From NCBI RefSeq assembly GCF_000372725.1, contig NW_005201287.1, positions 961,081-1,025,080 of the forward strand: a DNA stretch of 64,000 nt, read 5' to 3'. This document shows positions 1,759 through 47,833 of this stretch, in pieces. The stretch comes from Emiliania huxleyi CCMP1516 (Eukaryota). Every line of letters begins with the position of its first letter. Positions within the stretch are counted from its first letter, which is position 1. The notes under the pieces are model-generated. The model had not been told where the DNA came from. It ran no database searches and was given only the letters and a program-made list of their open reading frames with translations. The position numbers and the translations under genes were made by a program.

Positions 1759-4700
1759 CTAGCTCCCCCGACGCAGCACAGGCGGCTTGGTCACCCAAAG
1801 CTGCCCTGCACTATCCCTATCGACCAGCGGAGTGCTCCCGGCGGCCCACAAGTGGCCCGCGTGCCGGCGGTGCGTGTGGACGCTCTGCCAATGGGACTCG
1901 CGCGCAATACCATGCCAGCGACTGCGCGGCACGACAACCGGCGCCCGGGCAAGTAAGCGCGACGCGCTGCCGGGCGCGTAGCCGCCGCCGCGGGCGGCGG
2001 CATTGGCGGCGGCCCCAAAGAGGACGGTGTTGCGAGAGAGTGCGTCGAGCTCGGCGTCCATCTTGTCGAGCCGCACCTTTGACGTCTGCGCGCGCAGCTT
2101 GCTTCTCGGGGTGCGAGGCTTGAACGTGCGGCGACGCGGCGCCGGCGGCCTCCATTCCGGCAGCGTCCTCTGCTCGCGCATCTCGTCGAGCACGGCGCGC
2201 GCCTCGGCGAGCCTGCCCGCCTGACCGGGTGACAACAACAGAGTCAGAGGACTCCTTCATTCGGTGCGCCTCGGGCGAGCCCGGCCCGCCTCGTAGAGCT
2301 CGCTGATCAGGTCCTGCTCCCGAGTCGCGTTTGGCGCGAGCAGCAAGCCTGACGGGAGAGAGATGAGCGGCCCTCGCCCCACGGCCGCTCGGTCTCGGCT
2401 GCCTCTCGGCTGCCTCTCGCTCTCGCGCCGTGAGCGCGGCCCGCCGCGAGCAGCGAGACGGCGTCCTCCACAGCGCCGCTCAGCGTGAAGCCGAGGACGA
2501 GCTCTTGGCCAAACGTCCTCTGCACCTCGGGCGCGAGCCAGCGGCTCGACGCGCTGAAGATGGCGCGGCCCGCCTCGAGCAGCTGCCTGTTTGCGGGCCG
2601 CCCGCCCGACGGCATCACAGCGCCGACCAAGTACTGCACCGCGCCTGACAGACGCCACCGACACCAGTGACTGGGCAAGGCTCCACCTGCGGGTCAGTCT
2701 GCTGCACCGACGCCGTTCTGCTCGGCCGGGTTGGCCGCCGGCAGCAGCCCCGAGCGGACGCCCCACCGGAAGACCTGAGGGGCGTGTCCCGGGACGGTTC
2801 ATGGACGTGTCCTCGGGGCCGAGTAGAGGAGTCCCGCCGGAACGCCTCGAGGGCGAGCGGCGCGTCCGCGTGCAGCTCGCAGCCGCGCAGCAGCGTCATC
2901 AGCCCGACGATGCACGCGAGGTCGGCGCGGTACGCGCGGGTGAGCTCCGCGTACCTAATTAAAATCTTCATAATCATCACCGATTTAATATTATTTAATC
3001 AGGCGCGGGTGGGCTCCGCGTACCCGGTGCGCAGCAGCCCGGCATTGCGGCAAGCGAGCATCACCTACTCGCAGCCTTCTGCTCCTCGATGGAGAGCTGT
3101 CTGTGGAGGGCCTGTGGCACGCGAGCGTCGCCGTCGCGACGTGCGGCGGGTCGAGCACCTATTAAACAATATCAACACTACTCACCTTTTTAAGATTATT
3201 TAATTAGTCGCGACGTGCGGCGGGTCGAGCACTTTCCCGCCCTCCTCCTCGACCTCGTGCAGCAGCGTCACCGCCAACGTTGCGTCCGCCGCGCGCGCGC
3301 ACGCGACGAGCGCCGCAGACAGCAGCTGCCGGTGCTCGTTGACCTGCGTCGCACTCAGCTTCCCGCTGGCGCCGCGCCGCAGCCGAGGAGCGACGCGCGC
3401 GCGCCGGTAGAGGGCGACGGCGTCGGAGGCGGCGCCGCGGGAGCCGTGCGCGCGGATGGCCTGGTCGACGTCCCACCGTCTGCTAATTAGGAGAGAGTGC
3501 GCCAGGGAGAGTCCCCCCCCCGGAGAGCCCCCCCCCCCCCGTTTCTGCGCCCCGTTCTCCGCCGCCGCCAACCCTCCCGGGGAGAGCTAGCTCGCCTCCG
3601 CCTACTCCTAGCCTCGCCTCCGCCTACTCCTAGCCTCGCCTCCGCCTACTCCTAGCCTCGCCTCCGCCTACTCCTAGCCTCGCCTCCGCCGCAGAAGAGA
3701 CGCCCTCGCCGTACAGACGCTCCTCGAAGAGGCGGGCGCCTACGCGTACGCATCGGGAAGGGTCGTGGAGGGTGGCAGCGGGGGCCCGCTCCTTCCCAAG
3801 AGAGGCGGCGGCCGAGGGACGGCTCGATCCGCACGAGACCCGACTCGGCGCTCGCCATCATCAGCCTAAGGGCGCCGAGTCGCGCGAGTGGCGCGGCGAT
3901 GTGCGCGAGGAGGAGTGCGCCGGAGGGGGAGGGAGGGAGAGCCGGGTGAGGGTCCGGCTGAGGACGCGAAGCCCGCGCTCCGATGCAGACTGCCACAGAG
4001 CGAGCGCCTCGTCGCCTCTGCCGGCGAAGACGAGCGCCTCGAGAAAGAGGCACATCGGCCTACAGGAGAAGTCGAGGGGCAGCTCCGAGCACGGCTCCTG
4101 GAGGCGCGTCTCGCGGAGGCGGCTCCCCGGCCTACACCACCACAACCACCGCGCGGGTGACGGCCTGCCTCCCGCGGCCACTTGCAGGGGCAGTCTCCCT
4201 CGCACCGCTGCTGCAGAGGGATGTGTCTAGGAGGTGTCTAGGAGGTGTCTAGGAGGTGTCTAGGAAGTGTCTAGGAGGTGTCTAGGGAGTGTCTCCCTCG
4301 CACCGCTGCTGCAGAGGGATGTGCAGAGTGCGGCACGAGTGCGAGTAGATCTGCAGCGCGGTGCTGACGTCGCCTAGGGCCAGGGCCGGGGCCGAGGTCG
4401 GGCGTCAGGTGAGGAGAGCTGCGACGAAGTGCTGATGTCGCCGCTGATCGCGCAGACGGAGAGGAGCGGGTTGAGGACCTCCGCCGCAGCATCCGCCTCG
4501 GACAACCCTCCCTCCTCGGCGCCGCCCTCCGTTGCCGGGCGCAACTCAGCCGTGTTACCAGCCTCGTCAATACCCTGCTTGCCGCCGCCCCGCGCGCCGC
4601 CCTCCGCGCCGCCCCCGGGCCGAGGCAGGACGGAGAGGCCGCAGTCCATCCGCAGGTGCTCCACCACCTACAGGAGGAGATACGAGCCTCGCGGCAAGGT

Positions 4701-5486
4701 GCCTCTGCGCACTGCGACCCCCGCCGCTCGACCGCCAAAAAGGCGATGCGCAGCAGCAGCTCCTCGTGCTCGAGCGGCTCGCCGCCGACGACGCCCCACT
4801 CGTCGCTCCCGCTGAGGAAGAGCTCCGCGCTCTCCACCTACCAGCCTCACACCGCCGCCTCGCCCTCCCGGCACGCCGCAGGCGAGGCTGCCGCAGCCGC
4901 TCGCCTCGGCCGCGGCACTCCTCGCCGCCTCGCCTCGCCTCGCCGCCTCCTCGTCGCGCCGCGACGCGTCGGTCGACGAGAAGAGCTCGCGGTACGGGTC
5001 GCTCTCCTCCCACACGTCCGGCGGCGTGGGCGGCAGCCTCAGGTCGAACCGGTAACCCTCGCTCATCTGGCGGAGCAGCGAGGCGGCAAAGCCGGGCGTG
5101 CAGCGCGTCAGGCGGGCGCTGCGGTGCCTGAGGTAGAGCTCGCCGGCGAGGCTGCCCTGGCCGAGCTCACAGCAGTTGCGGAACGCGGTTTGCATCGCCG
5201 TATTCAGGTAGTCGTTTGACTTTTGATTGCGATGAGCCTCCGACGCCAATCCGATGGCGGCGTCCCTCTGCCTGACGGCGTCCTCCATCTCGAGGAAGAG
5301 GCGGCGCACCAGCCGCTCGTTGAGGCGGAGGAGGCCCTCGGCAAGCGGGTCGGGCGGCTCGTCGTCCTCGCGTCCTAGGCTTGGCGCCGGAGGAGGAGGC
5401 CGCAGGGCGACGCTGCAGAGGTTCGCTGCATGCCGGCGCGATCGGCGGCCAGCGTCCCCGGAGGCCACTCGCAGCAGCCGGAGCAT
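1759..5486 (-). CDS. Multi-exon (roughly 14 introns) PPR-like alpha-solenoid protein, probably organelle-targeted
   Basis: The spliced reading gives PPR-like helices: LISELYE|AGRLAEARAVLDEMRE, LLSAALVACARAADATLAVTLLHEVEEEG, VLDPPHVAT|VMLACRNAG, LEALVFAGRGDEALALW. The N-terminus is Arg-rich (MLRLLRVASG). Removing short GC/GT-AG introns restores the frame. Confidence 0.65.
3591..3690. repeat. 22-bp tandem repeat (CCTAGCCTCGCCTCCGCCTACT)n, about 4.5 copies, intronic
   Basis: Visible directly in the sequence. Confidence 0.9.
4226..4290. repeat. 11-bp tandem repeat (GTGTCTAGGAG)x~6 between identical 33-bp direct repeats (4193-4225 and 4291-4323)
   Basis: Visible directly; lies in a predicted GC-AG intron at 4227-4324 (minus). 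Confidence 0.9.
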
Positions 5487-5649
5487 GCCGCACCGGACAC
5501 AGCCCGGCAGAGGGCTTAGCAGCGTCGGAGGAAGCAGGATCAGGCTGGGCAAGTGCCTTCGTGCCTTCTCGCGGCGCAAGACGGCGCCGGTCGTGGAAAG
5601 TTCAAGCTGGACCGTTTCTTTCTGTGTGTGTTGGAACTATGTTAGGTAA

Positions 5650-6138
5650 TTGCCTGGAACTAGCTTGCCGAACTTGAGCTCTGTTGCTCGCGCCACCGCC
5701 TGCAGACCTTCTGGAATGCGCTTCACCGCCGGCTGCCTGCCACCGCTCCACTCCGCGGTCCGAACGACGGTCCCGAGCATGGCGAGCCCGCTCGACGCCG
5801 TGGCCACGCCGCTCACCAAGTTTCAGGGGAGCGGCGTCTCCAACAGCAACCCGCTTGCCGACGCGCCGTTTGAGGTGCTGGCTCTCTTTGCCGTCATCCT
5901 CCTGGCCGGCGTCGGCGGCCTAGTTCGCGCCTCGGGCGTGCTCTCGTCGGCGGCTCCGACTGTCGGTCTTGGAGAGAGCCGCGAGGAGCTCAAGGAGGAG
6001 GCGCAGCAGGCTGCGACCGAGGAGGCGGAGATGACGCAGGCGGAGAAGGAGGCGATGTACTTCAAAGAGATTCGTAGCGAGCTGGCAGCGAAGCGCGGCG
6101 GCTCGGGAAAGAAGCGAAAAAAGGCGCGCAAGAAGTAG
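5650..6138 (+). CDS. Small single-TM protein with a Lys-rich C-terminus, possibly plastid-targeted; start uncertain
   Basis: Hydrophobic segment FEVLALFAVILLAGVGGLV, then an acidic helix and the tail GKKRKKARKK. Confidence 0.6.
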   Translation: MPGTSLPNLSSVARATACRPSGMRFTAGCLPPLHSAVRTTVPSMASPLDAVATPLTKFQGSGVSNSNPLADAPFEVLALFAVILLAGVGGLVRASGVLSSAAPTVGLGESREELKEEAQQAATEEAEMTQAEKEAMYFKEIRSELAAKRGGSGKKRKKARKK

Positions 6139-6290
6139 CGCAGGAGGGTCCTGTTCTTGAGGTCATGCTTGAGGTTGCACGCGGTGGTCGAAAAATATGT
6201 GCGTCATTAAACATGCACATGTATGTGGGAGGCGCGCGGAACACACGGTACACACGCACACACGCACCTCATCTGTTTAAAAACATCCTC

Positions 6291-8287
6291 TCAGCACGCC
6301 TCTTGCTGTGCTGCGTGCGCGGTCTCGTGCGGCGGCGGCGGCACGACGAGCTGCGGCTCGCCGGGCACCGTGAGTGAGGCGGTGCAGGGCGGCGTGATCG
6401 CCACCAGCGGCGCGGAGTACGGGCTTCCGCCGGGGCCGCCGCTGCTGCGGGGCCCGCTGCTGCGGGGCCCGCTGCTGCGGGGCCCGCTGCCGCACCGGTC
6501 TGTGTTTGCGCGACTGTTGATCACGCGTCCCGCGGACGACCAGTCCATCAGCAAGCAGTAGGTCAGGCCGAAGAGGGCGAGCGGCGCCTGGGCGATGGTC
6601 GTGGCGCCGACGCAGAAGGCCAGCTTGCGAGGCACGGAGGAGGTGGCGAGGTCGGTGAGGGCGAGGGCGCCGACGACGGGCGAGGCGACGGCGTAGAAGC
6701 AGAAGAAGGTTGCTCCGATCGAGAGGAGCGGCTTGCCGAGCGGCACGAAGAGGCACATCGAGCAGATCGAGAGGATGCGGGTCTGCATGTGCGGCAGCAG
6801 CACCCAGAGGATGGCGCCAAAGGCGTCTCGAACCGCCTCGTCGTTGCTGACGGCGTGGGTGACGGCGCCGCTCGCGGCGAGGAGCGCGACGTTGTACGCC
6901 GCCACCAGCACCGACGCGATGCCGATGAGGAGGAAGAAGGCCTTCTTGGCGCCCGGGTCGCGCTTCCCGAGCAGGGTCATCGTGCGGACAGAGACCACCT
7001 GGATCCAGCCCTGCTGCGCGGCGGAGAGGGCCTGCGGACATGGCGTGGACGTGTCATCGACATGTCGTGGACGCGACCCGAGGATCCAGCCGTGCTGTGC
7101 GGCAGGCCTCTAACCCTAACCCTAACCCTAACCCTAGCCCTAGCCCTGCTGCGCGGCGGGCCTGCTCGCACTGCACCCAAATGGCTCCCGCCGCCACTTG
7201 CGCGGTCGAGACGCCCCGCACGTTGGTGAGCGCAACCAGCTGCAGCTCGAAGATGAGCCAGCCCGAAAAGTTCGACGCGATCTGCGGCAGCGTGAGCCGC
7301 GCGAACTCGCACACCTCCCTGCGGCTGAAGAGGGGCGCGTGCTGCTTGCCGCGCGGCAAGAAGAGCGGCAGGAGGCCGAACCACCACGCGAGGCCGCACC
7401 ACACCACGATCCGCGAGGCGCGCACCGTGCTCCACGCGACGGCGGCGCCGAGCACGCCCCACCGCCAGCGGTAGATGAAGGCGTACCTAGGTGAAGGCGT
7501 CAGTGGCCGTTCTTAGTCAGGCGCCGAGCAGGCCCCACCGCCAGCGGCAGAGAGAGGCGCGCGAGCAGAGCACGTCCAGGCCGAGCCCGGTGAGCAGCGA
7601 GTTGAGCGAGGCCTAGGGTTAGGGTTAGGGTTAGGGTTAGGGTCAGGGTTAGCCGAGCCCGGTGAGCAGCGAGTTGAGCGAGGCCGAGCGAGCGTAGCCG
7701 CACGAGACGAAGACGGCTTCGATCTGGATGTCGAGCAGCAGCAGCAGCGCGCCGCCCGCCATGACACGCGTGTACGTCCCCACGGCGGCGGCGATGCTCG
7801 GCTCGACGCCGACGCACCGCAGGACGGGCGCAGAGACAAACTGGAGAGCGCACGAGGGCAGGCAAGAGAGGGCCGCGAGGACGACGGCGCGCCGGAAGTA
7901 GTGCGGTATCCGGTCCCTGCGGCTCGCGCCGATGCACCCGGGCAGCACGTTCCACAGGTAGGCGCTCAGGCCGAGCATCACCATCAGCATCGAAACGTTG
8001 AAGTAGACCCGCCCGTAGCCGAGCGCCGACTGCAGGTGCGCCGAGTCGGGCGTGGAACCCGCAAAGAACATGGTGATGAGAGGCGGTGCGCCCCACTCGA
8101 GGATGGCAGACAGGCAAAGCGGCACGCCCTGGCTGAAGAAGAAGCGCAGCTCGTTGCGAAGGCTGTACGGCGGCTCCTCGGCGCTGCTGCTGGCCGGCTC
8201 GGCCGCGGCGGACTCCTCCGCTTCGGGAAGCATGGTCTCGCGCTGCGTCTCGCGACAGGGGCTGTCGGGCGACAGGAGCTGCGACAT
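6291..8287 (-). CDS. MATE (MatE) family efflux transporter, 3 introns (7613-7684, 7487-7562, 7032-7161)
   Basis: Multiple TM segments; MATE-like motifs LRNELRFFFSQGVP, YAFIYRWRWGVLGAAVA, EFARLTLP...WLIFE, SVRTMTLLGK. The frame is restored by GC-AG introns. Confidence 0.85.
7111..7146. repeat. Interstitial telomeric repeat (CCCTAA/CCCTAG)x6 in a MATE intron
   Basis: taaccctaaccctaaccctaaccctagccctagccc. Confidence 0.95.
7614..7651. repeat. Interstitial telomeric repeat (TTAGGG)x~6 flanked by an identical 34-bp direct repeat (7580-7613, 7652-7685)
   Basis: Visible directly in the sequence. Confidence 0.95.
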
Positions 8288-8964
8288 GATCCGTCTCTGC
8301 CGTCGCGGTCGGACGGTCCTGCTCGGTCGGTCGTGGTCACGGTTCGGGCTCCCTACTCGAGTGAGGCGGGCTCCAACTGTAGGGTGGTCGGACTGTCTAT
8401 TGGGATCGACCCCAGCTATGGGCTCGAGAGTACTGTTGTACGTACTTTTAGCTTACTGGGAGAAAAGAGAGAGGGGGGTTGTGTTCTCTAGGCCCCTAGG
8501 GTTAGGGTTAGCTCTCTCTGTTGTAGGCCAGGTTGAGGAGATTACACGATCCCGGCGTGAGCAGGACTAACTGAGGGATCCGCTCCTGACAGTGGCATGC
8601 ACTGCGCTGCGGCGCGTGCCACTGTCTTTGTTTGAAGTTAAAAGTCGAATCAGAGCGCCGTCGGCCGTCGGCGCTGTCCCTCGTTTTCCTCCCACGGACC
8701 GCCCGTCCGGCACCGCTCGCTCCGGGACGCACGCCGGCGAAGCACCATCAAGCTGCTGTACGGCCCCGGCATCGCCTCCCCTGGCTTAGCTAGACTGAGA
8801 GACCATTGTGCACATGGTTGGTCTCTACAATATATACACTGACACTAAACCTCCCAGAGCTCGTCCCGGTCCGTCACGGCCATCCTCGGCCTCCGGAGGG
8901 CCCCCGACCGCGGCGCGGTGTGGCGGCGTCACAAATCCGACCACAGAGCACCACGAAACCACGA

Positions 8965-9463
8965 CTAAGGTGCCCACAGGGTCCAAAAAAGAAAGGAAAA
9001 AAGAAATGGGGCAAGCCCCATCGCAGCACTTCGTGTTGGAGAGTCGAGATATTGAGATTGTGACTAGGAGGAAGGGACGCTGGCGATTCTCAAAGGTATA
9101 CCCTTGGAATGGCCGGATCCAGCCTTGAAAGTACGAGATCGCGCGCGCTTCGCGCGCTGCACCGCCTGTTCTCCGCGGCTGAGTGACGACGCGTGCCGTG
9201 TGCCAGCAGAGTTGGGCGCGCGCGGCGCCGTCGGCGCCGGTGAGGGAAGGCGCGGGTGCAGCGGCCGCCGGCGGTCGTACCGCTCGCCGGCCAGGCAGCG
9301 CAGCAGCGGCCAGCGCAGCGGCCGCTGGCGCAGCAGCCAGAGCAGCCGGTGCGCGCCTTGCGAGGCGAGTACTGCCGCCCGGCAGCCTTGAGGCGGCCAG
9401 GCGGCAGTACTCGTTCGAATGTTGCGAGCCGTGCGCGCGCCGAGGCGCGCGCGGCGCGCGCCC
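8965..9463 (+). mobile_element. Dispersed ~500-bp repeat family A, copy 1 (probable non-autonomous element)
   Basis: Near-identical, same orientation, to 53000-53499 (e.g. ggggcaagccccatcgcagcacttcgtgt...aaaggtatacccttggaatggccggatccagccttgaaagtacgag). Confidence 0.75.
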
Positions 9464-9632
9464 TGGCCCATAACACCGCCCGGGCACAGACTCCCTACCC
9501 GTCGGATCACACAGGGGCCCCTCAGAGCAGCCCACACGATCACACACTCACACACACACATCACTGTGAGAGTCGTGATTTCTTGAGCATTTTCAAAAAT
9601 CTCTCTCTCACACAGGTGCGTGCTTCTCTCTC

Positions 9633-23066: not shown

Positions 23067-25111
23067 TCACGCCGCCACAGTCTCCGGCGCCGGCACGCTC
23101 AGCGACCCCAACGACTGCGCCGCGCCGTCCGTGGCGGCCTGTTCCTCGTCGCTTCCGGCGGCGGCGGCGGCGACAGCCTCGATGCGGCACGCCCCCTCGG
23201 CGGTCACGTCGACGCTCACGACGAGCCCCGACTCGCCTGGCGCGTTGTCGCACGCGTGCAGCGCGAGCGCCGCCACGGCCCGGGGCGGCTGCGGCGGCCC
23301 GTCGGGGGGAGAAACGGCGTCGGCGGGCGGCGGCGGCGGCATCTCGACGAGGCGAAGCACGAGCCTCTGCCCGGCGGCCGGCGGCTCGACCTGCAGCGGA
23401 ATCTTCCGGTGCAGCGGCACGCAGCTTCCAGCACAAACGAGGGGGAGGAAGGCGCCGCCGCCGAGCTCGAGGGCGAGAGTGCGCGGCAACCTCCGCCGCG
23501 CACTCGCTGCACCGGAGCGTTGCCAGCCGCCCGCGGAAGTGTCGCCCGCCGCCATGAGCGAGCCTACGGGCGAATAGCATGACGAGAGTCGCGGACCTGC
23601 CTCTGCGGCGGCGGCGGCCTCTCGTCGGGTGAACCGTACAGCGCCGCGCCGCTGGCCGCAGCCTCGTCGGACGTGGCGCCAAAGTGGAGTGTGGCGCCTA
23701 CATGACAACATGTCAGGGCCGTGTCATGGACATGTCTACGAGATGGCGCCAAAGTGGAGGGTGGCGCCGGGGAGCTCAGCGGCGAGGGCGGCCTGCACAC
23801 AAGGCATGCGGCAGCCGCCGCCCGAGAGCAGCACCTCGCGCACGCACCGCGCGCCCTCGAGAGCTGACGCCTCGCCGGGCGAGCAAGCGTCGGCGGCGCG
23901 CAGCGCCGCGCGGGCGACGGAGCGCACCGCCGCACAGAGGGGGCGGGCGAGGTCCTCGAGGCTCGCCCGCGAGACGGTGACAAAGTGGTCCGCCCCCTCC
24001 GCCTCGACGGCGATCTGCGCCTGCGGGACACCCCTCAAGAGTACGCCCTCGCGTGGACATGTCACGGACGCGCCCGTGGTCTCCCTCTCCTCCGGCGGCA
24101 CGTCTGCGCCTGAGTCCCGCCAGAGAGGCTCCGCTTGCACGCCTCTGCCGCCGCGCCCAGCCGCGCCTTCGCGCGCGCGTTGCCGGACAGGTCGACGCGC
24201 GAGCGGCGGCGGATGTCCTTGAGCGCCAGCGCCACCAGCGCGGCGTCCACCTGCGCAGCGCCGCGCGTCTCGTCCGACGCCGTCGAGGCAATGCTGAGCC
24301 GGGCGACTGCGCGCCGCAGCCGCGTGCTTCGCGGCCCCGCCGCAGCCTCCCCGCCGCAGTCAGCCCCCCCCTCGCCGCCCCCCTCCCCCTCCGCCTCCCC
24401 CTCCGCCTGCCCCTCGGGCTCCTCTCCAAGGTCCACCACCGAAGCAGACACGCAGCAGCCGCCCACGTCCACCACCAGCAGCCTGCGAGGTGCGGCGCCT
24501 CCGCCGCCCGCCGCATCGGCGCCCGCCCCGTCGCCGCCGGCCGCCGCCGCCTCGATCTCGGCCACGCGCAGCAGGGCGACAGCGAGCGGCGAGGGCAGCG
24601 CCAGCTTGACCCGCATGCCGCCGCCCCGCGCCGCCTCGAGCAGCGCGTCGGCGCGCGAGGGAGCGAGGTGCGCCGGCGTGGCGAGGACAACCTCGCGCAC
24701 CGGCGCGCCGCAAAACGAGTCCGCCGCGCCGCGCAGCCCACCCACAACCAATGAGAGCAGCCGCACCGCCGTGTGCGTCTTGCCACCCGGCACCGCCACC
24801 GAGACTGCGCCGTCCTTCTCGGCGGCAGACGTGAGGAAGCCCCAGCGAGAGCGCGCGGCCTGCACGACCGGGTCGTCGAAGTCGCGGCCGAGCATCAGCA
24901 GCAAGTCGCTCATCGTCAGCTTTGGGTTGCGTGCTGCCTGTGCGGCCGCCGCCTCCCCGAGCAGCGTTTCGCCGTCGGCGAAGGCCACGGTCGTCGGCGT
25001 CGAGCGCGAGCCCTGCTCGTTGGCGATGAGCTGCACCGTGCCGTGCCGCATCACCGCCATCGTGCAGCACGTGTTGCCCACATCCAGCCCCAGCACGCCT
25101 GCCGCGCTCAT
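23067..25111 (-). CDS. Atypical Hsp70-family protein (HSPA14/Ssz1-like), introns 24021-24109 and 23698-23767
   Basis: Motifs VLGLDVGNT, IANEQGSRSTPTTVAF, VVLATPAH, VVDVGG, AEACKRSLS, VLLSGGGCRMP, DEAAASGAALY; catalytic motifs are degenerate. Confidence 0.8.
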
Positions 25112-27896: not shown

Positions 27897-28135
27897 GGTG
27901 TCGAGGTGTCGAGGCCCGGTGTCGAGGGTGTCGAGCTGCTGTCGAGGGATAGAGGTGTCGAGGCCTGTCGAGGCCTGTCGAGGCCTGTCGAGGCCTGTCG
28001 AGGCTGGGACCAAGCTTGTCCGTGTCGAGGGGTGTCGAGGGGTGTCGAGGGTGTCGAGGGTGTCGAGGGTGTCGAGGGTGTCGAGCAGGTGTCGAGTGTT
28101 GTCAAGGGGTTTTGCGTCTAAGGTGTCGAGGTGTC
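27897..28135. repeat. 9-11 bp satellite of GTGTCGAGG-type units
   Basis: (tgtcgaggcc)n and (gtgtcgagg)n arrays. Confidence 0.9.
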
Positions 28136-28529
28136 CAAGGTGGCAGGATGCAGTTGCAGCCCATCAACAAAACTTGGGCAGCAGTTGCAAAGCTGTTTCA
28201 TCCCTTAGTTGCAGCCTCAGTTGCACCCTGTTGATGTAGCACAACCTGAGCACAACCAGTATACTCTCTGTGGACATTTGAGGACATCAAGTGCCGGGAG
28301 TCATTGCCACTGTGCACAAAGGTGCTGTGCAGGCGCAGCACCGCAGCAGCGTCGCCGCTGCAGCAGCGTCGCCCCTGCAGCGTCACCGGCGCACATAGCG
28401 CAACTGACCACAGCGCTCATGGCACAAGGCTGGTGCCATGAGTCAGTGGACATTGCCACTGCACAAGGTGCTGTCCAGCAGCTAAGGGCTGCCAGTACCC
28501 CATCGCAGCAGCGTCGCCGCCGCTGCAGC
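28022..28529 (+). mobile_element. Dispersed ~510-bp repeat family B, copy 1
   Basis: Reverse complement of 48712-49229 (ggatgcagttgcagcccatcaacaaaacttggg...gctaagggct...gtaccccatcgcagcagcgtcgcc). Confidence 0.75.
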
Positions 28530-28645
28530 ACATCCAGGGCCGGGGAGCTAAGAAGCGCACCCAGCGGGCCGGATGATCGGGATCGGGTTACGGGCTAGAG
28601 AGCCCTAGCCCCGGGGGTGCGCGTTCGCAGGGCCGTAACACGGGT

Positions 28646-28786
28646 CTCCGAGGGTTAGTCCGCGCTCCAGGTTTCCCCTAGCAGCGGAGCGCCCCCTCCA
28701 CTCGGAGCTAAAGAATACTCTCCGAGGGTTGGACCCGCGTACCAGGTTTCCCCTTAACTGCAGAACGCCCCCTCTACTCGGAGCTA
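28646..28786. repeat. Imperfect tandem duplication, ~74-bp period
   Basis: ctccgagggtt...ccaggtttcccct...cgccccct.actcggagcta occurs twice (28646 and 28720). Confidence 0.8.
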
Positions 28787-31059: not shown

Positions 31060-33381
31060 CTACGCGCCTGCCGCATCCGTCGCAGACGTGATCCTCTTCG
31101 GCGTGATCCTCTCCGTCGCCTCTTCGATGGCGGTGGCGATGTCCGGGTAGGCGGCGCCGCCGTGCTTGCTGTTGTCGAGGCCGGCGTCCTCGACTTCTTT
31201 CGAGATGCGGAGCAAGCCTCCCGCCATGAGGCCCGAGAAGAGGATCGCACTCAGCGCGCCGACCCAGAGGGTGATGAAGACCGTGCCTGCGGGGCAGGGG
31301 CGAGCGTCGGAAGGGAAAGAGAAGAGGGCGCACTTTGACGCGGGAGCGGACCGACGATCTGCGTGGCGAGCAAGAGGCCATCGCCGCCGTAAAAGACGCC
31401 GCACGCCGTGCCAGACTCCGTGTAGGAGTAGTCGCACGTGCAAAAGAAGCCGACGGCGAGGCAGCCCCACAGACCGCACGCGCCGTGGACAGCGAAGGCG
31501 TCGAGCGGGTCGTCGATCTTGAGCCTGCGCATCAAGCACGAGGCGCCGTGGTAGAAGAATGCTCCGATGAAGCCGATGACGACCGACGCCCAGATCTCGA
31601 CGGTCGTGCAGCCGGCGGTGATCGAGACGAGCCCTCCCAGCAGCGAGTTGCAGGTGTGGCCGAGGTCCCACACGCCGGGCGACCCTCCGCAGGAGCCGGG
31701 CGCGAAGCGCTTGAGGAGGATCCCCGTGGTGGCGGCCTAGGGTTAGGGTTAGGGTTAGGGTTAGGGTTAGGGTTAGGGTCAGGGTTAGGAGGATCCCCGT
31801 GGTGGCGGCCTAGGGTTAGGGTTAGGGTTAGGGTTAGGGTTAGGGTTAGGGTTAGGAGGATCCCCGTGGTGGCGGCCTATTAGGGTTAGGGTTAGGGTTA
31901 GGGTTAGGGTTAGGGTTAGGGTTAGGGTTAGGGTTAGGGTTAGGGTTAGGGTTAGGGTTAGGGTTAGGGTTAGGGTTAGGGTCAGGGTATGGGTTAGGGT
32001 TAGGGTTAGGAGGATCCCCGTGGTGGCGGCCGTGGCGGCGGAGAGCGTCGTCGTGACGGCGGCGCGGGCCGCGTCGCGCGCGTAGTTGTGGAGCGCGAGG
32101 GTTGAGCCCGGGTTGAAGCCGTACCAGCCGAACCAGAGCAAAAAGGTGCCCAGCACTTGCAGGGACGCCGACTGGCCGGCGAAGGCGTCTGCGGGGGCGA
32201 CGCGTGCGCGTGAGGGAGGAGGCGGGGCAGCCGCACCGAAGCAGGCGGGTGCGCACGTTCGGGCAGCTCTCCGAATCGGCCCTTGCGAGGTCGGATGATG
32301 AAGGCACCGGTGAAGGCGCAGATGCCTCCCGTCATGTGCACGACGCCGGAGCCCGCAAAGTCGACCATGCCTGCGGACGGGGCGGGGCGGGGCGGGTGAG
32401 GGGAGGGGGCGGTGGCATTGTCTGCTGGAGGGGGGGGGGAGAGGGGCACCAGTGAGCATCGCGTCCTTGTTAAAGGCGGAGAGGAAGCCGTGTTCGTCCC
32501 ACACCCTGCGGCCAGAGAAAAAGGGGTGACCGCTGTTCAGACGTCTGCCACCCCTCCCGGGGTCTGCTCCCCCTCCCCGGGGCTAGCCCCTGGGCTGGGA
32601 GCGTAGTACGCCCGTCGCTGCAGATGCGGAGCGAGGCGAAGGCTGGCAATGGACGCTCCCCGGGGCAGCTGCGCGCGCCAGTGCACCACCGTCGGGTATA
32701 CGAAGCCGACGATGGCGAAGACGTACGCGCAGTAGCCAACCAGCGTGCACCGCTCCGCCACAGCGCCGGACGTGATGGTCGCTGCCGCCGCCGCAAAACA
32801 GTACTGGAAGAAGAAGAAGACGGCGTCGTGCCCGTAGTCCTTTTTGCCGGTCGTGTCGTCGGCTCCGGAGAGGGCAAAGTTGTGGCCGCTGCCGCCGATG
32901 AAGGCGTTCCCGTCCTCGCTCTTGTCATAGGCAAAGCCGAACCCAATGAGGTACCTAACAGCAGCGGGCTGGGCTGAGCGCGCCCGCGAAGGCCCCGCTG
33001 ACACCGCTCCGGCCCTCGGACACCAGACCAGCCCGCCGAAGCACGCGTCCATGACGGACTTGAGAAGGATGTTCTTGACGCTGCGCATGCGTACCGATCC
33101 CGCCGAGAGCAGCGCGAAGCCCGCCTGCATGAGAAAAACTAGAGCCGCGCAAAAGAGCAGATAGAAGGTGTTCGTCTCGCTCTGCGACCGGGTGCACGAG
33201 GCGTGAGTGGGCGCAAAGGGCGGCGCGGCGCGCCAGCTGTCGCCGCCGGGCGGACCTCGTCAGCTTCGAAGCGGACCTCGTCAGCTTCGAGCTGTCCGCG
33301 CAGCGCCGTGGCGCAGGCCGTCAGCGAAGACACGTTGGCCGTGACCTCTGGACCGAAGTTGCAGGCCGAGAGAGGAGTCAT
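31060..33381 (-). CDS. AMT1: Ammonium transporter (AMT1 family), multi-exon
   Basis: Motifs [96 protein letters not shown]. Confidence 0.95.
31714..32031. repeat. Four identical 24-bp exon-derived repeats (AGGAGGATCCCCGTGGTGGCGGCC) separated by three TTAGGG arrays
   Basis: Copies start at 31714, 31787, 31854 and 32008; the spacers are telomeric hexamers. Forms AMT intron 31737-32030. Confidence 0.95.
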
Positions 33382-34919: not shown

Positions 34920-35300
34920 CCGGGGGGGGGGGTTATTTCCTATGGCTATAGGGGACGCGGCTGGGAGTAGGTGACCCAGAGCCCCGGGGCAGAGAAATTG
35001 GCGACTGGGGCCCGGGGTTTGCCACCCTAACCCGGGAAGTTTTGGGGGTGTTTCAGGGGGGGGGAGCCGGTCTTTAGATTTTTTTTTTCCCCTTGGGAAA
35101 AGGAAAACAGGGTATTTTTAAACCTCAGAATCGGGGGGGGCCGGGTCGCTTTTAAGGGGGGGGCCTTTGAACCCGGGCAAACGGGTTACGTGTTTGTGGG
35201 GGTCCCCAAAAAGGGGAGGTCCCAGGGTTTTTGGGAAAACAGGGGGGCTTTTTCTGGGGTTTTTGCCCTTAAGGCCCCCCCCCCCCCCCCCCCCCCTCCT
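34920..35300. other. Homopolymer-rich segment, probably low-quality sequence or an assembly junction
   Basis: Dense G/T/C/A runs with no coherent frame, typical of read-end base calls. Confidence 0.55.
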
Positions 35301-40311: not shown

Positions 40312-40362
<51 letters not shown>

Positions 40363-40947: not shown

Positions 40948-41400
40948 AGATTGAGATTGTGGATTGCAGATCGCTGAGCAGCAACACGGGCCAAAATGTG
41001 GGAGATAGCGATAGGAGATAGAGAATGCAGATTGTAGATCCTAGCGCCCAGCCATCCGCCCCAGATGTGAGATCGAAGATTGAAAATGGAGGTCGTAGAT
41101 TGCTGCCGGCGGCGACAGTGGCCAAGTAGAAGATTGGAGATCGGAGACGAGAGATGGTCAGTGTGAATGAATCCAAATTGCATCTCCTTGAAGGTTTGAG
41201 CCCCCCTCCTCCCCCGGGCCCCCGAATCGAGATTGGAGATTGGAGATTGGAGATGGAGATCGGAGATCTGACTGAATCCGGCCTAAGATGACGACGTTGG
41301 GAGATTGGAGATTGAAGATGGAGATCGGAGTTCTGACTGGATCCCGGCCTTAGATGACGACGCTGTGGATTAGAGAGTATTGGAGATGGGGAGATCGGAG
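40948..41400. repeat. Purine-rich (GAGATTG/GAGATCG)n low-complexity tract including a ~70-bp duplication
   Basis: gagattggagattggagatggagatcggag.tctgactg..atccggcct.agatgacgacg occurs twice (41230-41365). Confidence 0.75.
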
Positions 41401-42764
41401 CCCACCCACCCCCTTAGTGGTGTTGATAGATGTTTTATAGATTTTTGTTTTTTTCCTGTGGTCTGTGCGCGGACGGCCCGGGGAGCCTGCGGCGCCATTT
41501 TAATCTGCGCTCCTCTTCATGGCCTGCGGCGCCTGGCTTGAGCTTGGAGGTGTAAACGAGTCCGCCAGGGCGGTCTGCAAACACGGAGCGCGCTGCGCGC
41601 GCGGTCTACGGAGGGATGCGGGCAAGGCAGCGGGAGCGAGACAACAAGTATGCTAAGGTGCGAGACGGGAGCCATGCGACAAGTTGATTCTGGGTGGTGG
41701 TGATGGAGGTTGGGGGCTGGACAAACATGGAGGAAGAGGCTAGATGGAGGTCAGGTATCGTGGTCGAGTACGAGGGGTGGGGGGGGAGGGGGTTCAACCT
41801 GGTGACGGAGGACTGTGGGTCATCGCGGGAACGGGCCCGCCGGAGGCGCGCCCGGTAGATCCGGATGGCTTCACACCGGTGGGAGGCACCGAGGCGTCGC
41901 GGGGACGCTCTTCTGTTCAGTCGACGCTCGTCGTCCACTGAGAACTCAGTGGTTGTCACCACTTTGTATTCTTTAATATTAACCTTGCGAACTCGTCCCC
42001 CCCGGCAGGGCTATGCAACTGTGACCAGTGTGTGCTGTCTACGCCTGAACCAGGTGTCAAATCTGCCGATGCGTGATCTGTGTGTGGGCCGCTCTGTGAG
42101 GGGTCCAGGCATTGTCCGACGGGTAGGGGGTCTGTGCCCGGGCGGTGTCCGGTGCGGAGTCTCTCTCTGATCCCGCCTGTGGTGTTGGGTGCGAGGTCGT
42201 GGAAGCTTCGATCCCAAGGGGGGGAGCTGATCCCACTCGGTAACCAACTCTCAGGGGCAGTAGGTGGGCGGGCTTCAAGCGCGCTCATCTCGAACGACAA
42301 GGCGTCGCTACGCGCGGTCTTCCGCGGGGGGAGCTTCGTCGACGGGTGCGGGAGCGCAGCGCAGACAGTGCTGCGGCGATGCCTCCGGCTGTTTGCGGCG
42401 GGCGGCTTGCTGCTCGCGGTGATGGCGAAAAACTCGTCTCGTGGCACACCAAGGGCTTAGGCTCTGTCGAGACGTGAGGCGTATGCGCCCAGGAGGGGAG
42501 GGTGCATGCGTAACGACGCTGCTAGAGATGCCTTTCGGGGCCCAGAGATAAAACTTCTGATGCCATGCGTGACCTAGTAGTGTCCCCAGCTATGGGCGTG
42601 TCCACGTTGGAGCCAGGTGTGGTGTGGACGCGAGAATAGCTCCGCCGTTCATGGAGGCAACCGATGCGAGTCGACTGGTGTGTGTCGTCGTGGTTTCGTA
42701 TCAAGAATTCTCTCTCTCTCTCTCTCTCGTCGGACACCGCTCTGAAACAAGTACAAGAAAGTGA

Positions 42765-43048
42765 AAGAACAACACGGACAACCCAAAGGAGGGATGGGAG
42801 GACGGCGACGCCTTTAACACAGGATTGAAAAAGAAAGAAAGAAAGAAAACGGACAAGCCAAGGGAGGGATGGAGAAAGAAAGAAAGAAAGAAAACAGACA
42901 ACCCAAGCGGGGAAAAAAGAAAGAAAGAAAGAAAACACAAAACCCAAGGGAGGGATGGGAGAACGGCACGCCGCCACCACACAGGGATTTTAAGGAGAGG
43001 AGTGTGGTGCGCTAGCCGTCGCCAGCGGGGAGGGATGGAGGACGGCAT
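42765..43048 (+). repeat. Dispersed repeat family C, copy 2 (internally iterated GAAA/acccaagggagggatggg units)
   Basis: Matches 37270-37455 (inverted) and 52747-52808. Confidence 0.75.
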
Positions 43049-43096
43049 AGACGGGCCTTTTTTTAGCGGCGCCGACGCCAAAGTGCCCGCACACAG

Positions 43097-44881
43097 ATGA
43101 TGGTCGGCTCCGTCGCCGTCAAAATCGCTCGCGTGCCTGCCGACACAAGCCTTCTCTTCCCAACCAACGCCCGCCGGCTCACGCGCTTCATGATGGAGGA
43201 GACGTACGGGGGTTGCCGGCCTCTCTCTGCGGCGTGGGCGCAGCGCGGTGTGCTGGACGCGACGGCAGACTCCGACTTCTACTCCCGGCTGGCCTACTAC
43301 GAGTCGATGCGCACCGAGGGCCGTCCCCGTGGCAGCATCTTTCAAGCGCTCGCGGCGGACGGCTCCCTCTGTGGCTTTGCCGACGTCGGTGCTCACCTCT
43401 GGCTGCCGAACGATGGCGTGCACCGACTGCCTGATAGCGAGGATCTGCAGCGGCTCGCCTCCACCGGGATCGGCGCCGACGGCGCTCCAAAGACAGACGT
43501 GGTGTTGCGGCCATACGTCTCAAACCTGGTGGTGAGCTCCTCGCTGCGGCGGTGCGGGATCGGGCGCCGGCTGCTCGCGGCGTGTGAGGAGGAGGCGGCG
43601 CAGTGGGCGGCCGCCTGCGGCAGCGTCGGCGGCGGCGGCGGCGCGTGCGAGGAGGTCTGGCTCGAGGTTTCGGCCGCGAACTCAAACGCCCTGAGCTTCT
43701 ACTCCTCGTGCGGCTTCCGCCAGGCGGGAAGCACTCGCGGCAGCGAGGTGCAGCGCGGCGAGGGAGGCTTCAGCATGGTGGACGTGGAGCGGCGGGTCCT
43801 GTGCAAGCCGCTCGCGAGGCTGCGCGGGGGACATGTGCATGTGCATGGAAAGGTACATGTGCGGGCTGCCCACGCGCGGGCAGCCGCCCCGGCGATGTGC
43901 GCGCCGCCTGCGCGGGTCCACCAGGCGTACACGGCAGAAGAAGACGCGTGGCTGTGGGAGCGGCGGCACGAGCCTGCGGCGGAGGTTGCGGCCGCGCTCG
44001 GCCGCGGCGAGAAGTCCGTCGTGGCCCGCCTCGCGCGCCTCCGGCTGCCCTCCACCTCCGGCCACGCGCGCCTCTTCCACGCGCGCGGAGGCCAGAGGGA
44101 GGGGGCGGGGGCGGAGGAGGAGCCGAGCAAGGGTGCTCCGCTCCGGCCGGCGCGAGACTGCCTGCAGCGGATCGCACACGACCCCTCGCTGCGCAGCTCC
44201 GACTTCAGCGTCGGCTACCGCGACCGCTTCCGCCCGGCGGCGCTCGAGGCGCCGTTCGACGCCCCGAACGAGGCGGTGCGCGGTGGGGAGCGGTCGCTCG
44301 TCTTTGCGCTGCCCGAGCACCGCATCGAGTTCATCAAGTACCGAAGGCGCGTCGTCTGGCACAAGGGCAGCCGCACCGACCTCGTATTCGGCTCGACGGG
44401 GCAGTGCCGCATCCAGGAGGTCGTGGCAACCTACGCGGAGTGGGAGGAGGACCGCGCCGCAGCGCTGCGCCGTGCGCGGGCTCGGGCTTCACGAGCGCTC
44501 TCTCGATCGCTCGGCGGCAAGCCTGCTGGGAGGGAGGCCCTCGCTGCCTTTGGTCGGCGGGTGGGGCGCGTGAATGCCGGCGAGCTCACGGCCGCCGCCC
44601 TGGCGGAGGAGGCTCTCTCGCCCGCCTACTTTGGCGCCGACGGGGACGGCGGCGGCGGAGAGCCGAGCGCAGGGGGGGAGAATGCGCCAGTGGCGGCGGT
44701 GCTGGAGCTTGTCAGCACTCTGCCCGACGAGAGGGCGGCGTTGCGCGAGGAGCTCGAAGCGGAGCTCCGAGGGCGGATCGCGTCCAGCGCCGCGCGGGAG
44801 AGTCTGCGTGCGGCCCGCGAGGCGACCGTCAGTGCCAAGCAGGCGCTGGAGGGACGGCCTCCGCGGCCGAGTGCGCCCTGA
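43097..44881 (+). CDS. GNAT acetyltransferase + HTH/Myb-like + MJ1316 (DUF504, LENG9-like) domain ORF
   Basis: GNAT motif A YVSNLVVSSSLRRCGIGRRLL...WLEVSAANSNALSFYSSCGF; YTAEEDAWLW...LGRGEKSV; LRPARDCLQRIAHDP...FSVGYRDRF...LPEHRIEFIKY...VWHKGSRTDLVFGS. Confidence 0.75.
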   Translation: MMVGSVAVKIARVPADTSLLFPTNARRLTRFMMEETYGGCRPLSAAWAQRGVLDATADSDFYSRLAYYESMRTEGRPRGSIFQALAADGSLCGFADVGAHLWLPNDGVHRLPDSEDLQRLASTGIGADGAPKTDVVLRPYVSNLVVSSSLRRCGIGRRLLAACEEEAAQWAAACGSVGGGGGACEEVWLEVSAANSNALSFYSSCGFRQAGSTRGSEVQRGEGGFSMVDVERRVLCKPLARLRGGHVHVHGKVHVRAAHARAAAPAMCAPPARVHQAYTAEEDAWLWERRHEPAAEVAAALGRGEKSVVARLARLRLPSTSGHARLFHARGGQREGAGAEEEPSKGAPLRPARDCLQRIAHDPSLRSSDFSVGYRDRFRPAALEAPFDAPNEAVRGGERSLVFALPEHRIEFIKYRRRVVWHKGSRTDLVFGSTGQCRIQEVVATYAEWEEDRAAALRRARARASRALSRSLGGKPAGREALAAFGRRVGRVNAGELTAAALAEEALSPAYFGADGDGGGGEPSAGGENAPVAAVLELVSTLPDERAALREELEAELRGRIASSAARESLRAAREATVSAKQALEGRPPRPSAP

Positions 44882-45100
44882 TAACAAGTTGTGTTTACTT
44901 ACACGTACCACGTCCCCTTGACTATGGCTTAGAGCCGTAAGGTCCCCACACTGTGGGTCCACGGCGATCTGTCGACCACGAAATCGGAAATCGAGAAAAA
45001 AGCGGCGGCGGCCCACGGTTTGGAGATGGACGTCACACCCTCCACCGTCGAACCAACGCTATCTCTATGTGTACTGGCCACTACTTGTACTTGTGCACAA

Positions 45101-47833
45101 CTAGTCTGGCGCGCACAAGTCGAACTCGTTCGCGGCGCACCGACGCGCGAGCCATGCCCCGTCGAACACGCGCGACACGACCTCCACCGCGAGACCGTTG
45201 CGAGGCAGGTCCACGATCAGCGAGCACGTCCCCTCGTCCGGCCGCGACCGCACGGCAAAGGGCACGCCGTCTCCTCGAAGGACCCGCGCGAGCTCGGTCA
45301 GATTCCCGACTGAGAGCACCTCCCGGTGGTCGAGCCACTGGTCGTATGTGCCGTGCGTCAGGTCGCGCAGCGCCTCGACGTACTCGGCGAGTTGCGAGAC
45401 GTTGAAGGGCACCGCCGGCCGCAGCCCGTCGGAGCTCACCCAGTCGGCGGTGTCGTAGCGCACCACGTGCCACTCGTGGCTGTCCGGCCACTCCGCCCAC
45501 GCCAGGGTCGTGCACGGCCCGTCCGCCATCGGCCCGCGGTGCTGCTGGACGGGCGAGCCGCCGAGGTAGCGGACGGCGAAGTCGATCGCCGCGCGCGGGT
45601 CGGCTCCCGCCATCGTCGTCTTGTTGGTGTCTGCGTCGCCGGGCGAGTATGCGACGCCGAGGTCGAGGCTCGGAAGAGGCGGGGCCGAGGCGCGCAGGCG
45701 CCGCCGGCGCTTGGGCGAGCAGAATTGGTCGGTGGAGGAGAAGCGCACGTGGCACGGCGGGAGGGCGGGCAGGTACCAGTCGCCGAGCACCTCGACAATG
45801 TGGCCCGTGCCTGGGATCGCGACGTAGATGGACTGGTACACGCCTGCGCTCTGGCCGGTGAAGAAGGGGACTCCGTCGCGCAGCAAGTCGGCTGCGATCA
45901 GGTCCGAGGGGCGGGCGTAGAAGCCGAGGTGGAAGTCGAAGTACTACGGCGGCGGCGGCGTCAGTGCCTTGCCGGGCGGATAGGCCGGCGGCAGAGGCGG
46001 CGGCGTGGGGGCGAGGCTGGGCGGGAGTGGCGGCGAGGGCGGCGGCGTGGGCGCCTTGCCTGGTTCCAGTGATGCCCAGTGTTGACGGACAGGTTGCCGA
46101 AGAGCAGCGTCATCGCGGCGGTGTGCGCGGCGGTGTCGTACGCCCCTCCAGGCTTGCGCGGGTTGGAGACGAAGCGGAGCTCGAGGCCGCCGCCGCGAAA
46201 GTCGGCGTGACGCGGCAGCCGCACGGACACCTCGCGCGGCGGGCGCTCGTCGGCTTTCCCAAGGCAGCGCGGCCGGCTGTCCGAGAGGAGGGTGGCGCCA
46301 AAGTAGCGTATTGCAAAGTCCGCAGACGACCTCGGGTCGATCGAGGCGTAAGAGTGGCCCTGCACTGTCGGCCAGGAGGGGCCGGGCCGGGAGGGGCCGC
46401 CGGCCGCCATCGACGGCGCGCGGCAGGCGAGCGGCAGCGCGGACGGAGCCCAGCCTGCGCGGGCGGCGGCGTCGCACAGACGAGCCACCCACGCCTGCGA
46501 GCTGGCGAGGCCGGTGCAGTTGTACACGGCGCCTTCGTCGAGCACGCAAGCGGGCTTACCCTCGATGCTCATCGTGCACGACTTGCACGCCGTCTTCGGG
46601 CGGCTGCTGTGGTGGCCGCACAGCGTGTGCGTGCGAGCGACAGCCTCGGCGAGGAGCGTAGCGCCCTCGGCCCCGCGCACGCAGGCGTCGATCGCATCGG
46701 CGGTGGCCGAAGGCACGCTGTAGCGCTGCAGGCAGGCGTGCGTGTTTCCCGGGATGCGGCTCGCGGCTGTGGTGTTGAAAGGGCGGCCGCCCTCGGCCTC
46801 GGCGGCGCAGCGCAGGAAGAGGAGCCAGTTCAGATGCGCGGGCAGGCCGCGGGTGTCCACGTCGACGTGCGACGGCCAGTGCTTGTGCGTGCAGAGCTGC
46901 GCCTTGTTGCCCACGCACTCGCTCTCTCCGTGGAGGCACGCGACGCCGCCGCCCGCCGTCCGCTCGCCGAGGAAAGAGAGCCTCACCTGCTCACCGCAAC
47001 ACGCCTGTGGGAGAGAGGCAGGGAGAGAGGGGGGAGAGAGGCAGGGAGAGAGTCTTGCCTCGACGAGTTCGCCCACTGCCTGCAGCACCGGCTCGAGCAT
47101 CCGCTCGCACCTAATGGAGGAGCGGGCTCATTCACCGCTCGGCAAGAGAAGCAGCGCCGGCTCGCCGATCGCACCGGCTCGCATCGGGGCACTTTGAGGC
47201 GACAAAGAGGTCGAGCGTGACGCGGCGCGGCGGCGGCGGCGGCGGCGGCAACAGCGGCGTGGGAGGCGCGGCCATCACAGCCATTGGCCGGGTCGGCGGC
47301 GCCACCGCGACGGGGATGGGTACGGCGATGGGTGGGCACTCTGGCTTAGGCCACGCGGGATCTTGGAATGCCTGCACCTCGAAGCGATAGCACCCGAGGC
47401 CGTCTGCGAGCACGTCATAAAAGTTGAAGGCGTACACTGCGAAGCGGATCGAGTGGCCGGGCGCCGTCACGCGCACAACGCGCGGTCCGAGAGCGGTGAG
47501 ATGCGAGTGCCAAGCGTCAACCTCTCGGGTGCCGGGAACGACGAGGGTGTACGTCACCGGAGGCGCGTCTTTCGAGCCTTCCGGGCCTTTCGGACACGTC
47601 GGCGCCGGGCGGCTGTCACACACGCCGAGGTAGTGGCTCGGAGCCGCGTGGAAGATGCGGCACAGCGAAGCTTGCTTGGTGCCGTTCACCTCTGCAAAGC
47701 CGAGCGACGTGAGGAAGTGTGCGCCGCTGGTGAGAGACGTAGCGTAGAACCAGGTGATTTGCTGGGAGACCTCCGGACGCGAGTCTGGTGTGGCGAGAGC
47801 GACAGCGAGGGCGAAGCCGAAGGCGGCTACCAT
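45101..47833 (-). CDS. Secreted multidomain protein: VOC/glyoxalase domain + GILT thiol-reductase-like domain + two further VOC-like modules; 3 introns
   Basis: Signal MVAAFGFALAVALA; QQITWFY...CRIFH...YLGVC...VDAWH...FEVQAFQDPAWP (VOC); LFVASKCPDA...CLHGESECVGNKAQLC (GILT); DPRSSADFAIRYFG / DPRAAIDFAVRYLG internal repeat. Confidence 0.7.

Follow-up and report, generated by a model that had tools for sequence, protein, structure and literature searches.

Emiliania huxleyi is a bloom-forming, globally abundant alga of which many strains have been sequenced. We analysed a 64,000-nucleotide stretch of the CCMP1516 assembly (contig NW_005201287.1, positions 961,081 to 1,025,080; hereafter the window, in whose coordinates all features are given), where an original prediction made from the letters alone had proposed an unusual intron form in five unrelated genes on the minus strand: a start of GC or GT that copies the beginning of the next exon, followed by a filler and a terminal AG. 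The first of these genes (1850–5486), labelled 'PPR-like', yields a frame of 772 amino acids (aa) once spliced and packs 14–15 introns into 3.6 kb. Excision also leaves open frames in a MATE gene (572 aa), an Hsp70-like gene (604 aa) and a GILT-containing gene (826 aa), and the AMT gene is in frame over its junction, its model being valid only downstream of a first register that proved wrong. A Pfam search of exons matched MatE, HSP70, Ammonium_transp and GILT, confirming four of the predicted labels; no Pfam match came from three exons tried in the 'PPR-like' gene or from the exon where 'VOC' was expected. A protein search with a MATE exon gave no match, which is weak evidence. Over 151 of 151 residues, the glycine-cleavage H protein that the window encodes after splicing matches an E. 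huxleyi sequence exactly, and an intronless window protein has an Emiliania member in its cluster. Intronless frames in the window include an MFS frame (431 aa) and an alpha-galactosidase-like frame (488 aa, labelled by eye).

The exon-copy introns are real, and the observation reaches beyond this window. All 13 segments originally listed begin with GC or GT and end with AG, 11 of the 13 are 64–76 nucleotides (nt) long, and in every one the intron start resembles the downstream exon start more closely than in 99% of 1,406 mismatched intron/exon pairs. We applied this copy threshold to 38 curated window introns, 15 in the RNA-covered gene and 23 set by reading frame; splice registers were set by protein sense, and choosing the longest open frame errs in GC-rich DNA. 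Fifteen of the 38 carry a significant next-exon copy at their start, which adds two introns absent from the earlier list (7032–7161 and 24021–24109), and the mirror polarity, with the copy at the opposite end, occurs in one. Among the RNA-defined introns of the first gene, leaving 4227–4324 apart, 7 of 14 pass. In the curated set the intron is followed by GY (Y, C or T) in 33 cases and preceded by G in 33, and 27 of the 38 introns are 60–80 nt long. An annotation-free scan of both strands returned 21 start-anchored and 12 end-anchored matches, mostly one repeat set viewed from either strand, compared with 0–1 in each of three dinucleotide shuffles.

RNA contigs from two public studies (runs X11 and X13) show that several of these segments are removed. 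A 2,596-nt X11 contig spans the first gene with 13 joints, all of which recur in X13, and five segments correspond to joints of exactly their length. These are 2221–2289 (69 nt; joint 2214>2284 in X11 and X13), with a diverged, gapped copy plus filler (anchored score 16) that is present in all six DNA runs; 2645–2713 (69 nt), with an old, weak copy (score 9, p=0.008); 2775–2845 (71 nt), with an old copy (score 9) whose donor is GC where the exon copy starts GT; 2955–3023 (69 nt), with a 22-nt copy (2934–2955 and 3003–3024, 21 identical), likewise present in all six DNA runs; and 4374–4441 (68 nt; joint 4368>4437), with a diverged copy of score 17. The introns at 3065–3131 (67 nt, diverged copy, score 11) and 3159–3232 (74 nt) appear in RNA as a single combined joint of 141 nt. 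The latter consists of a perfect 26-nt copy (3133–3158 and 3207–3232) and a 48-nt AT-rich filler, to which the AT-rich filler of 2955–3023 is related. The 98-nt insert at 4227–4324, a perfect 33-nt copy (4193–4225 and 4291–4323) with an array of an 11-mer satellite, is seen in RNA only within a 244-nt joint, and its copy takes in the donor of the next intron. Excision as originally proposed is confirmed at the five exact joints and not here. The copy straddles an older donor, so that splicing of the window allele may remove one 244-nt intron (4060–4303) and the insert might just lengthen an older intron. Another kind of repeat lies nearby, at 3587–3690, where a 22-bp unit repeated 4.8 times runs over the donor of intron 3461–3683 and copies the exon end together with that donor.

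In the remaining genes the introns first listed are placed by open frames only, and no joint for 7487–7562 or 7613–7684 was among the RNA joints listed. The MATE gene holds a stacked intron of 130 nt (7032–7161), composed of a copy with telomeric repeats and then a copy with 11-mer satellite filler, and its frame opens with this register alone. The same gene holds a 76-nt intron (7487–7562) with a 32-nt copy (30 identical) plus filler, present in all six DNA runs, and a likely polymorphic 72-nt intron (7613–7684) with a perfect 34-nt copy (7580–7613 and 7652–7685) and a telomeric repeat array. The frame of the Hsp70-like gene is restored by excising a 70-nt intron (23698–23767) made of a 25-nt copy (24 identical) and filler of the 11-mer satellite family; the frame also sets an 89-nt intron at 24021–24109 with a weak copy (score 11, p=0.001). 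In the AMT gene the frame sets a stack of three units (154, 67 and 73 nt; 31737–32030), each with a 24–26-nt copy of the exon start and telomeric repeats, and the 826-aa GILT-containing frame sets a 64-nt intron (47111–47174) with an old, gapped copy (score 10, p=0.002). Three older introns (2775–2845, 3065–3131 and 7487–7562) have a GCG donor where the exon copy begins GT, hinting that the donors of older introns may drift from GT to GC.

The original prediction held that young copies should be polymorphic, and this is what we found in contigs from six DNA runs (X1, X4, X6, X8, X9 and X10), which come from four studies and from which rare variants drop out. At 3159–3232 exactly 74 nt are missing in X1, X6, X9 and X10, X8 is continuous, and X4 has a half-depth 117-nt contig with breaks on both sides. 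The contigs were presumably built from 31-letter words, and because the 26-nt repeat is shorter than this, assembler collapse would not account for the skip. The segment at 7613–7684 is skipped in X4, X6, X8, X9 and X10, with contigs breaking in X1, and 4227–4324 is skipped in X10 only, with contigs breaking in the other five runs; with copies of 34 and 33 nt, both skips could be collapses, although these assemblies show breaks and not a collapse at the other of the two sites. Seven introns with diverged copies are each present in all six runs, and skips are confined to the three perfect copies examined. The window segments are thus, at least in part, recent inserts, gain being the simpler reading of the empty allele at 3159–3232. 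In X4 and X8 the intronic copy of that segment differs from the window by C-to-T changes (coding strand) at two CpG sites, 3212 and 3215, where the two window copies are identical; the empty allele of X1 has one of the two changes.

An artefact of assembly, or chance similarity in GC-rich DNA, would be the simplest way to dismiss these observations. Copies of 33–34 nt beside high-copy arrays can collapse or break in short-read assembly, and two of the three skips are ambiguous on this account; the architecture nevertheless recurs in independent contigs and in 119 metagenome loci with nulls near zero, and the segments are taken out both by the RNA joints and in a transcript-derived protein. We regard this explanation as having a negligible chance of being correct.

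The 119 metagenome loci (230,305 bases) were retrieved with one filler repeat, that of the 11-mer family, and locus choice needed arrays of at least 24 nt assemblable from short reads, which biases lengths for this family. De-duplication was imperfect, with the same site from different samples among a few loci (for example L004, L092 and L119). Species identity was checked at one locus, L048, where the product of one exon matches an E. huxleyi protein with 100% identity, and the others are assumed to derive from the same or a close species. A direct repeat abuts 109 of the 133 11-mer arrays with enough flank, compared with nulls of 1.6% and 6%. After removal of 10 compound arrays and of gapped or non-abutting ones, 87 clean events remain, in which the copy is 13–42 nt long (median 24), the filler has a median of 45 nt, and copy plus filler has a median of 70; the distance to the nearest copy is 60–79 nt in 144 of 267 repeats. 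Copy and filler lengths are negatively related (rho −0.59, n=94), and the total length is therefore the constrained quantity. The duplication is, as had been claimed, both variable and longer than that of introners.

The fillers are diverse but far from unrelated. A filler-blind scan of the loci and the window found 231 events, 127 of them with other fillers and some of them false or coding repeats. Among 117 fillers outside the query and the 11-mer family, 53 fall into families, a few of whose members are duplicates of one site, and 64 are singletons; 132 pairs are similar, compared with 0 after shuffling. The families comprise 10-mers, 11-mers, a longer unit, microsatellites and AT-rich pairs. 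Array starts of the 11-mer family use 10 of the 11 possible phases and array ends all 11, and members of other families also begin and end at differing points. The original description of the fillers as heterogeneous and free of terminal inverted repeats thus survives as to their unfixed ends and fails as to the 53 that share families. Microhomology of 1–3 nt occurs at both junctions: in the 11-mer family an in-register overlap of at least 2 nt is present at 32 of 70 left and 29 of 59 right junctions (46–49%, null 19%), and one of at least 1 nt at 56 of 70 and 44 of 59 (null 49%). Fillers lie in both orientations relative to the gene (28 and 18). Telomeric repeats are the cargo of 3 of the 231 events, all within the window, the loci having been picked by another repeat. 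Of 30 events whose copies have mismatches, 23 have the more codon-like sequence in the downstream copy. Across loci, positions with G/C in the intronic copy and A/T in the exon copy outnumber the reverse.

These ends bear on whether the inserts could be classical introners, that is, non-autonomous DNA transposons with terminal inverted repeats and a fixed short target duplication. The duplication does supply one splice site, filler families recur in unrelated genes, and two AT-rich window fillers have loosely palindromic ends. Set against this, a variable duplication of 13–42 nt contrasts with the 3–9 bp (PMC9860276) and 3–8 nt (10.1101/2020.10.14.339549) given in the accessible text of the introner literature, constant ends are absent, and 64 of the 117 fillers are singletons. 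We consider the introner explanation very improbable overall, and for the 11-mer family it is largely refuted. One of the recurring families, with eight members (at L019, L035, L044, L048, L065 and L104), has a unit of about 30 nt in place of a short-period array; if any filler is a true element, this family is the best candidate. A further idea drawn from the two AT-rich window fillers, that the filler is a short element with CT...AG inverted ends, did not prove general and was rejected.

Other repeats in the window were recorded alongside the fillers. Two 93%-identical copies of a 522-bp dispersed repeat (28022–28529 and 48712–49229) have at their end a tract of 10-mers (CTCGACACC-like) similar to the 11-mer intron filler; in these two copies we saw no long frame and no clear flanking duplication. 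Inverted copies of a 505-bp repeat (8965–9463 and 53000–53499, 95% identical) also match the end of L007 and have very high contig depth in the DNA runs. Intergenic tandem repeats at 28645–28786 and 41235–41400 have periods of 76 and 65 nt, near the intron unit length, and lack the copy-plus-satellite layout. A homopolymer-rich tract of low-quality appearance (34920–35300) adjoins a WD40-like gene at its end, and the frame of that gene extends into the tract. Neither filler pattern had a match in viral contigs.

We next consider how the inserts splice. From 216 locus events, those outside 55–100 nt or near contig ends were removed, leaving 169, of which 66 had no strand call and 103 have a coding context; the call comes from a codon model that on its training set is right in 78% and wrong in 6% of cases and that 7% of non-coding windows pass. 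A perfect GY–AG excision is available in 77 of the 103 events (75%) in the sense orientation, compared with 46 in antisense and 30% in a simulation of blind insertion. The asymmetry is concentrated at the 5' edge of the copy (42 sense and 9 antisense solutions, p=3e-6) and is absent from the 3' edge (7 and 7). An initial null based on shifted lengths (44 edge splice sites vs 33–40 at some shifts) was replaced by these sense/antisense and simulation controls. The commonest register is +1, with the acceptor G inside the duplication (24 events), followed by +2 (11 events), and among events with no 5'-edge solution AG|GY lies inside the copy in 24 of 54, where 8.7 are expected. The claim that the copy always occupies the 5' end of the intron therefore describes the 42 edge events and is not universal, and the acceptor, which had been assigned to the filler, often has its G in the duplication. 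Donors recruited from exon sequence are GC in 28 and GT in 14 events, and blind simulation gives 75% GC. This GC share approximates both the exon composition and the ratio published for the genome as a whole (56–65% GC, 35–40% GT and up to 4% GA; PMC4028052, accessible text), in agreement with the proposal that exon-derived donors account for the excess of GC donors.

The idea that synthesis delivers introns ready to splice did not survive: where the filler AG is not needed, YAG stands at the filler end in 9 of 54 events (10.3 expected). The same counts argue against a filler that is the reverse-transcribed tail of an excised intron or lariat, for which CTR at the filler start (14 of 54, 10.9 expected) and a branch-point-like motif near the filler start (6 of 27) were also recorded, and this candidate was rejected. 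Breaks in CpG-methylated nucleosome linkers were rejected as well, the copies being slightly CpG-poorer than their flanks (0.126 vs 0.144, p=0.017) and 93 spacings having no clear period.

Inserts also accumulate on one another. A third copy lies nearby in 23 of the 169 events (null 0.4% per side), some of which are plain satellite arrays, and about 10 sites have units with unrelated or oppositely oriented fillers, several of these stacks having shifted copy ends. The window has two stacks, at 7032–7161 and 31737–32030. The best test locus is L048, where a PX-domain trehalose-6-phosphate synthase gene (81–3812) holds 13 duplication events outside the query family in 4.1 kb, with a likely GA donor and several stacks. 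Here a transcript-derived protein aligns with the copies removed and sets nine intron spans independently of the duplications; four of these have a clear exon copy at their start, the mirror polarity is absent, and the long spans resolve into stacked shorter units.

Stacking and edge preference raise the possibility of a process that is coupled to splicing or transcription and targets exon starts, for instance through breaks or cDNA invasion at AG|GY, in which many events would renew existing introns. Such aiming would fit the 5'-edge excess (55% vs 19%), the predominance of GY at the starts of window exons and of G at the ends of upstream exons, the stacked units that restart at one exon start (L048, L076, L112 and AMT) and the strong clustering of events in genes. 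It fits less well with the other allele at 3159–3232, which is empty and not an older intron, with the enrichment of interior AG|GY copies, with the copy at 4227–4324 that straddles a donor, and with the stacks whose copy ends are shifted. We consider aiming at exon starts rather unlikely.

We favour a model in which fill-in of a staggered break captures satellite DNA by microhomology-primed synthesis and splicing then filters the products, and put the probability of this reading at roughly 0.55; new introns are likely still arising in E. huxleyi, and the likely route is the patching of staggered DNA breaks. We infer the break, the enzyme and the template as follows. Two nicks on opposite strands, 13–42 bp apart, would open the site, and fill-in would yield the duplication. 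Synthesis primed by microhomology, polymerase-theta-like or reverse-transcriptase-like, could then copy 30–55 nt of satellite or telomeric sequence. The spliceosome would take GC, GT and some GA donors and prefer introns of about 70 nt, so that the inserts retained would be those whose copy starts (A)G|GY with a filler abutting AG, or whose copy contains AG|GY. Later events on the now-neutral intronic copy may stack further units of about 70 nt, and recombination between copies might remove one unit or the whole intron.

Several observations weigh against break repair with a splicing filter. Of the 103 coding-context events, 26 lack a perfect GY–AG excision, or 17 if GA donors count, and the strand calls depend on a codon model tested on its own training set only. 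The 5'-edge splice site is used in 42 of 77 spliceable events (55%), compared with 19% under blind insertion (p=5e-12). Events are clustered by locus (chi-square p=2e-13 over 39 loci, 13 events in L048), and the 24 kb between window genes hold three repeats, none of them copy-plus-satellite, which random breaks do not predict. Deletion between copies would give the same empty allele as gain, and mammalian telomeric insertions have a simple duplication in just 3 of 66 loci (PMC7215372, accessible text) where here it is the rule. A blind process with an all-or-none filter leaves the edge excess and the gene clustering unexplained. The edge excess would require a further preference, either that an acceptor abutting the filler works much better or that exon starts are targeted.

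Another source of the duplication could be a non-LTR retroelement or telomerase-like reverse transcriptase that nicks the target, primes there and copies short repeat RNAs in trans into a truncated tract, splicing again acting as the filter. Certain site-specific non-LTR elements produce duplications of 20–50 bp. A long, variable duplication at nearly every array, microhomology at both junctions, telomeric fillers at three window sites and a 522-bp dispersed repeat that ends in a related 10-mer tract would all suit such an enzyme. It is harder to reconcile with the lack of a fixed 3' end or tail, nearly all phases being used at both array ends, with the absence of an excess of intron-like YAG ends where splicing has no need of them, and with a filler length that is not the constant quantity; no reverse-transcriptase-like frame was seen by eye next to the 522-bp repeat. 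We judge this route unlikely, though to be taken seriously. Tentatively, and as a bolder proposal whose odds remain clearly unfavourable, the data could reflect a dedicated, transposon-free intron factory, in which transcribed genes are cut enzymatically at AG|GY exon starts or beside them, with about 25 bp being duplicated and a short satellite tract written in. If true, its units of about 70 nt would be spliceable, stackable (possibly recursively), renewable and precisely deletable, and it would explain a large share of the species' introns, the intronic 10–11-mer satellites and the GC-donor majority.

Where new spliceosomal introns come from, apart from outbreaks of introners, has long been a question, and the break-repair and tandem-duplication routes of intron gain have so far been based on tens of cases or fewer. 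In E. huxleyi a readable, datable scar marks about 40% of window introns (15 of 38) and well over a hundred sites in 230 kb of selected loci. With a route that is still segregating, gain, renewal and precise loss would become directly countable across strains. The 2013 E. huxleyi genome paper reportedly found that introns are enriched in 10–11-bp repeats, and its supplement may affect how new the architecture is. The route described here would tie together the GC-donor majority (PMC4028052), those intronic repeats and the poor gene models of this genome.

Our literature search, whose scope lay outside supplements, the 2013 genome paper and most subscription papers, found no account of this architecture in E. 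huxleyi. In its accessible text PMC4028052 attributes the GC–AG majority to genome GC content and leaves exon copies in introns unmentioned; PMC2784329 describes one gene with two alleles that differ by about 50 nt in intron length, and the accessible text of that paper and of PMC10290126 holds nothing on a copy-filler intron architecture. The comparisons that follow likewise draw on the accessible text of each source. Introners, described from Micromonas, Aureococcus, dinoflagellates and Chrysochromulina, are near-identical copies with defined ends and a fixed 3–9-bp duplication (PMC9860276; 10.1101/2020.10.14.339549), and the word 'Emiliania' is absent from the main text of PMC9860276. The inserts studied here resemble them in recruiting a splice site from the target duplication, as the sense bias of the 5'-edge solutions indicates, and differ in having variable ends, a duplication about three times longer and variable, and a cargo of tandem-repeat DNA. 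Under the tandem genomic duplication model (Rogers 1989; Hellsten 2011, via PMC4974935), which rests on few cases and involves no foreign filler, AG|GY within the duplicate gives both splice sites; the same holds here for a subset only (24 of 54), while every event includes a filler, which often contributes part of the acceptor. Target-primed insertion of non-LTR elements shares the variable length of the duplication, but here both ends vary and there is no constant 3' end.

The closest systems are the break-repair introns of Daphnia and the interstitial telomeric inserts of mammals. The neointrons of Daphnia pulex, ascribed to repair of staggered double-strand breaks, have exon–intron repeats of 4–12 bp (33 in a set of 90) and are 78% A+T (PMC4202315, Li et al. 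2014). As in Daphnia, a direct repeat is shared between the new intron and the end of the exon beside it (15 of 38 window introns, 109 of 133 arrays), presence and absence are polymorphic, with a precise empty allele at 3159–3232, and young introns receive secondary insertions. Unlike those of Daphnia, the repeats here span 13–42 bp, lie beside about 80% of arrays and belong to a total of about 70 nt, and the cargo, in place of locus-unique filler, comes mostly from satellite families common to several genes. Interstitial telomeric inserts of mammals share repeat arrays at breaks, in-register microhomology (seen here in the 11-mer family), occasional target duplication and polymorphism; in the horse a simple duplication is found at 3 of 66 loci, and there is no human exon case (PMC7215372). 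Here, in contrast, a duplication normally accompanies the insert, the cargo comes from many repeat families, and inserts in exons persist as introns. We take the exon-copy introns of E. huxleyi to be a form of intron gain by break repair or duplication that differs from the known ones and occurs on an unusual scale.

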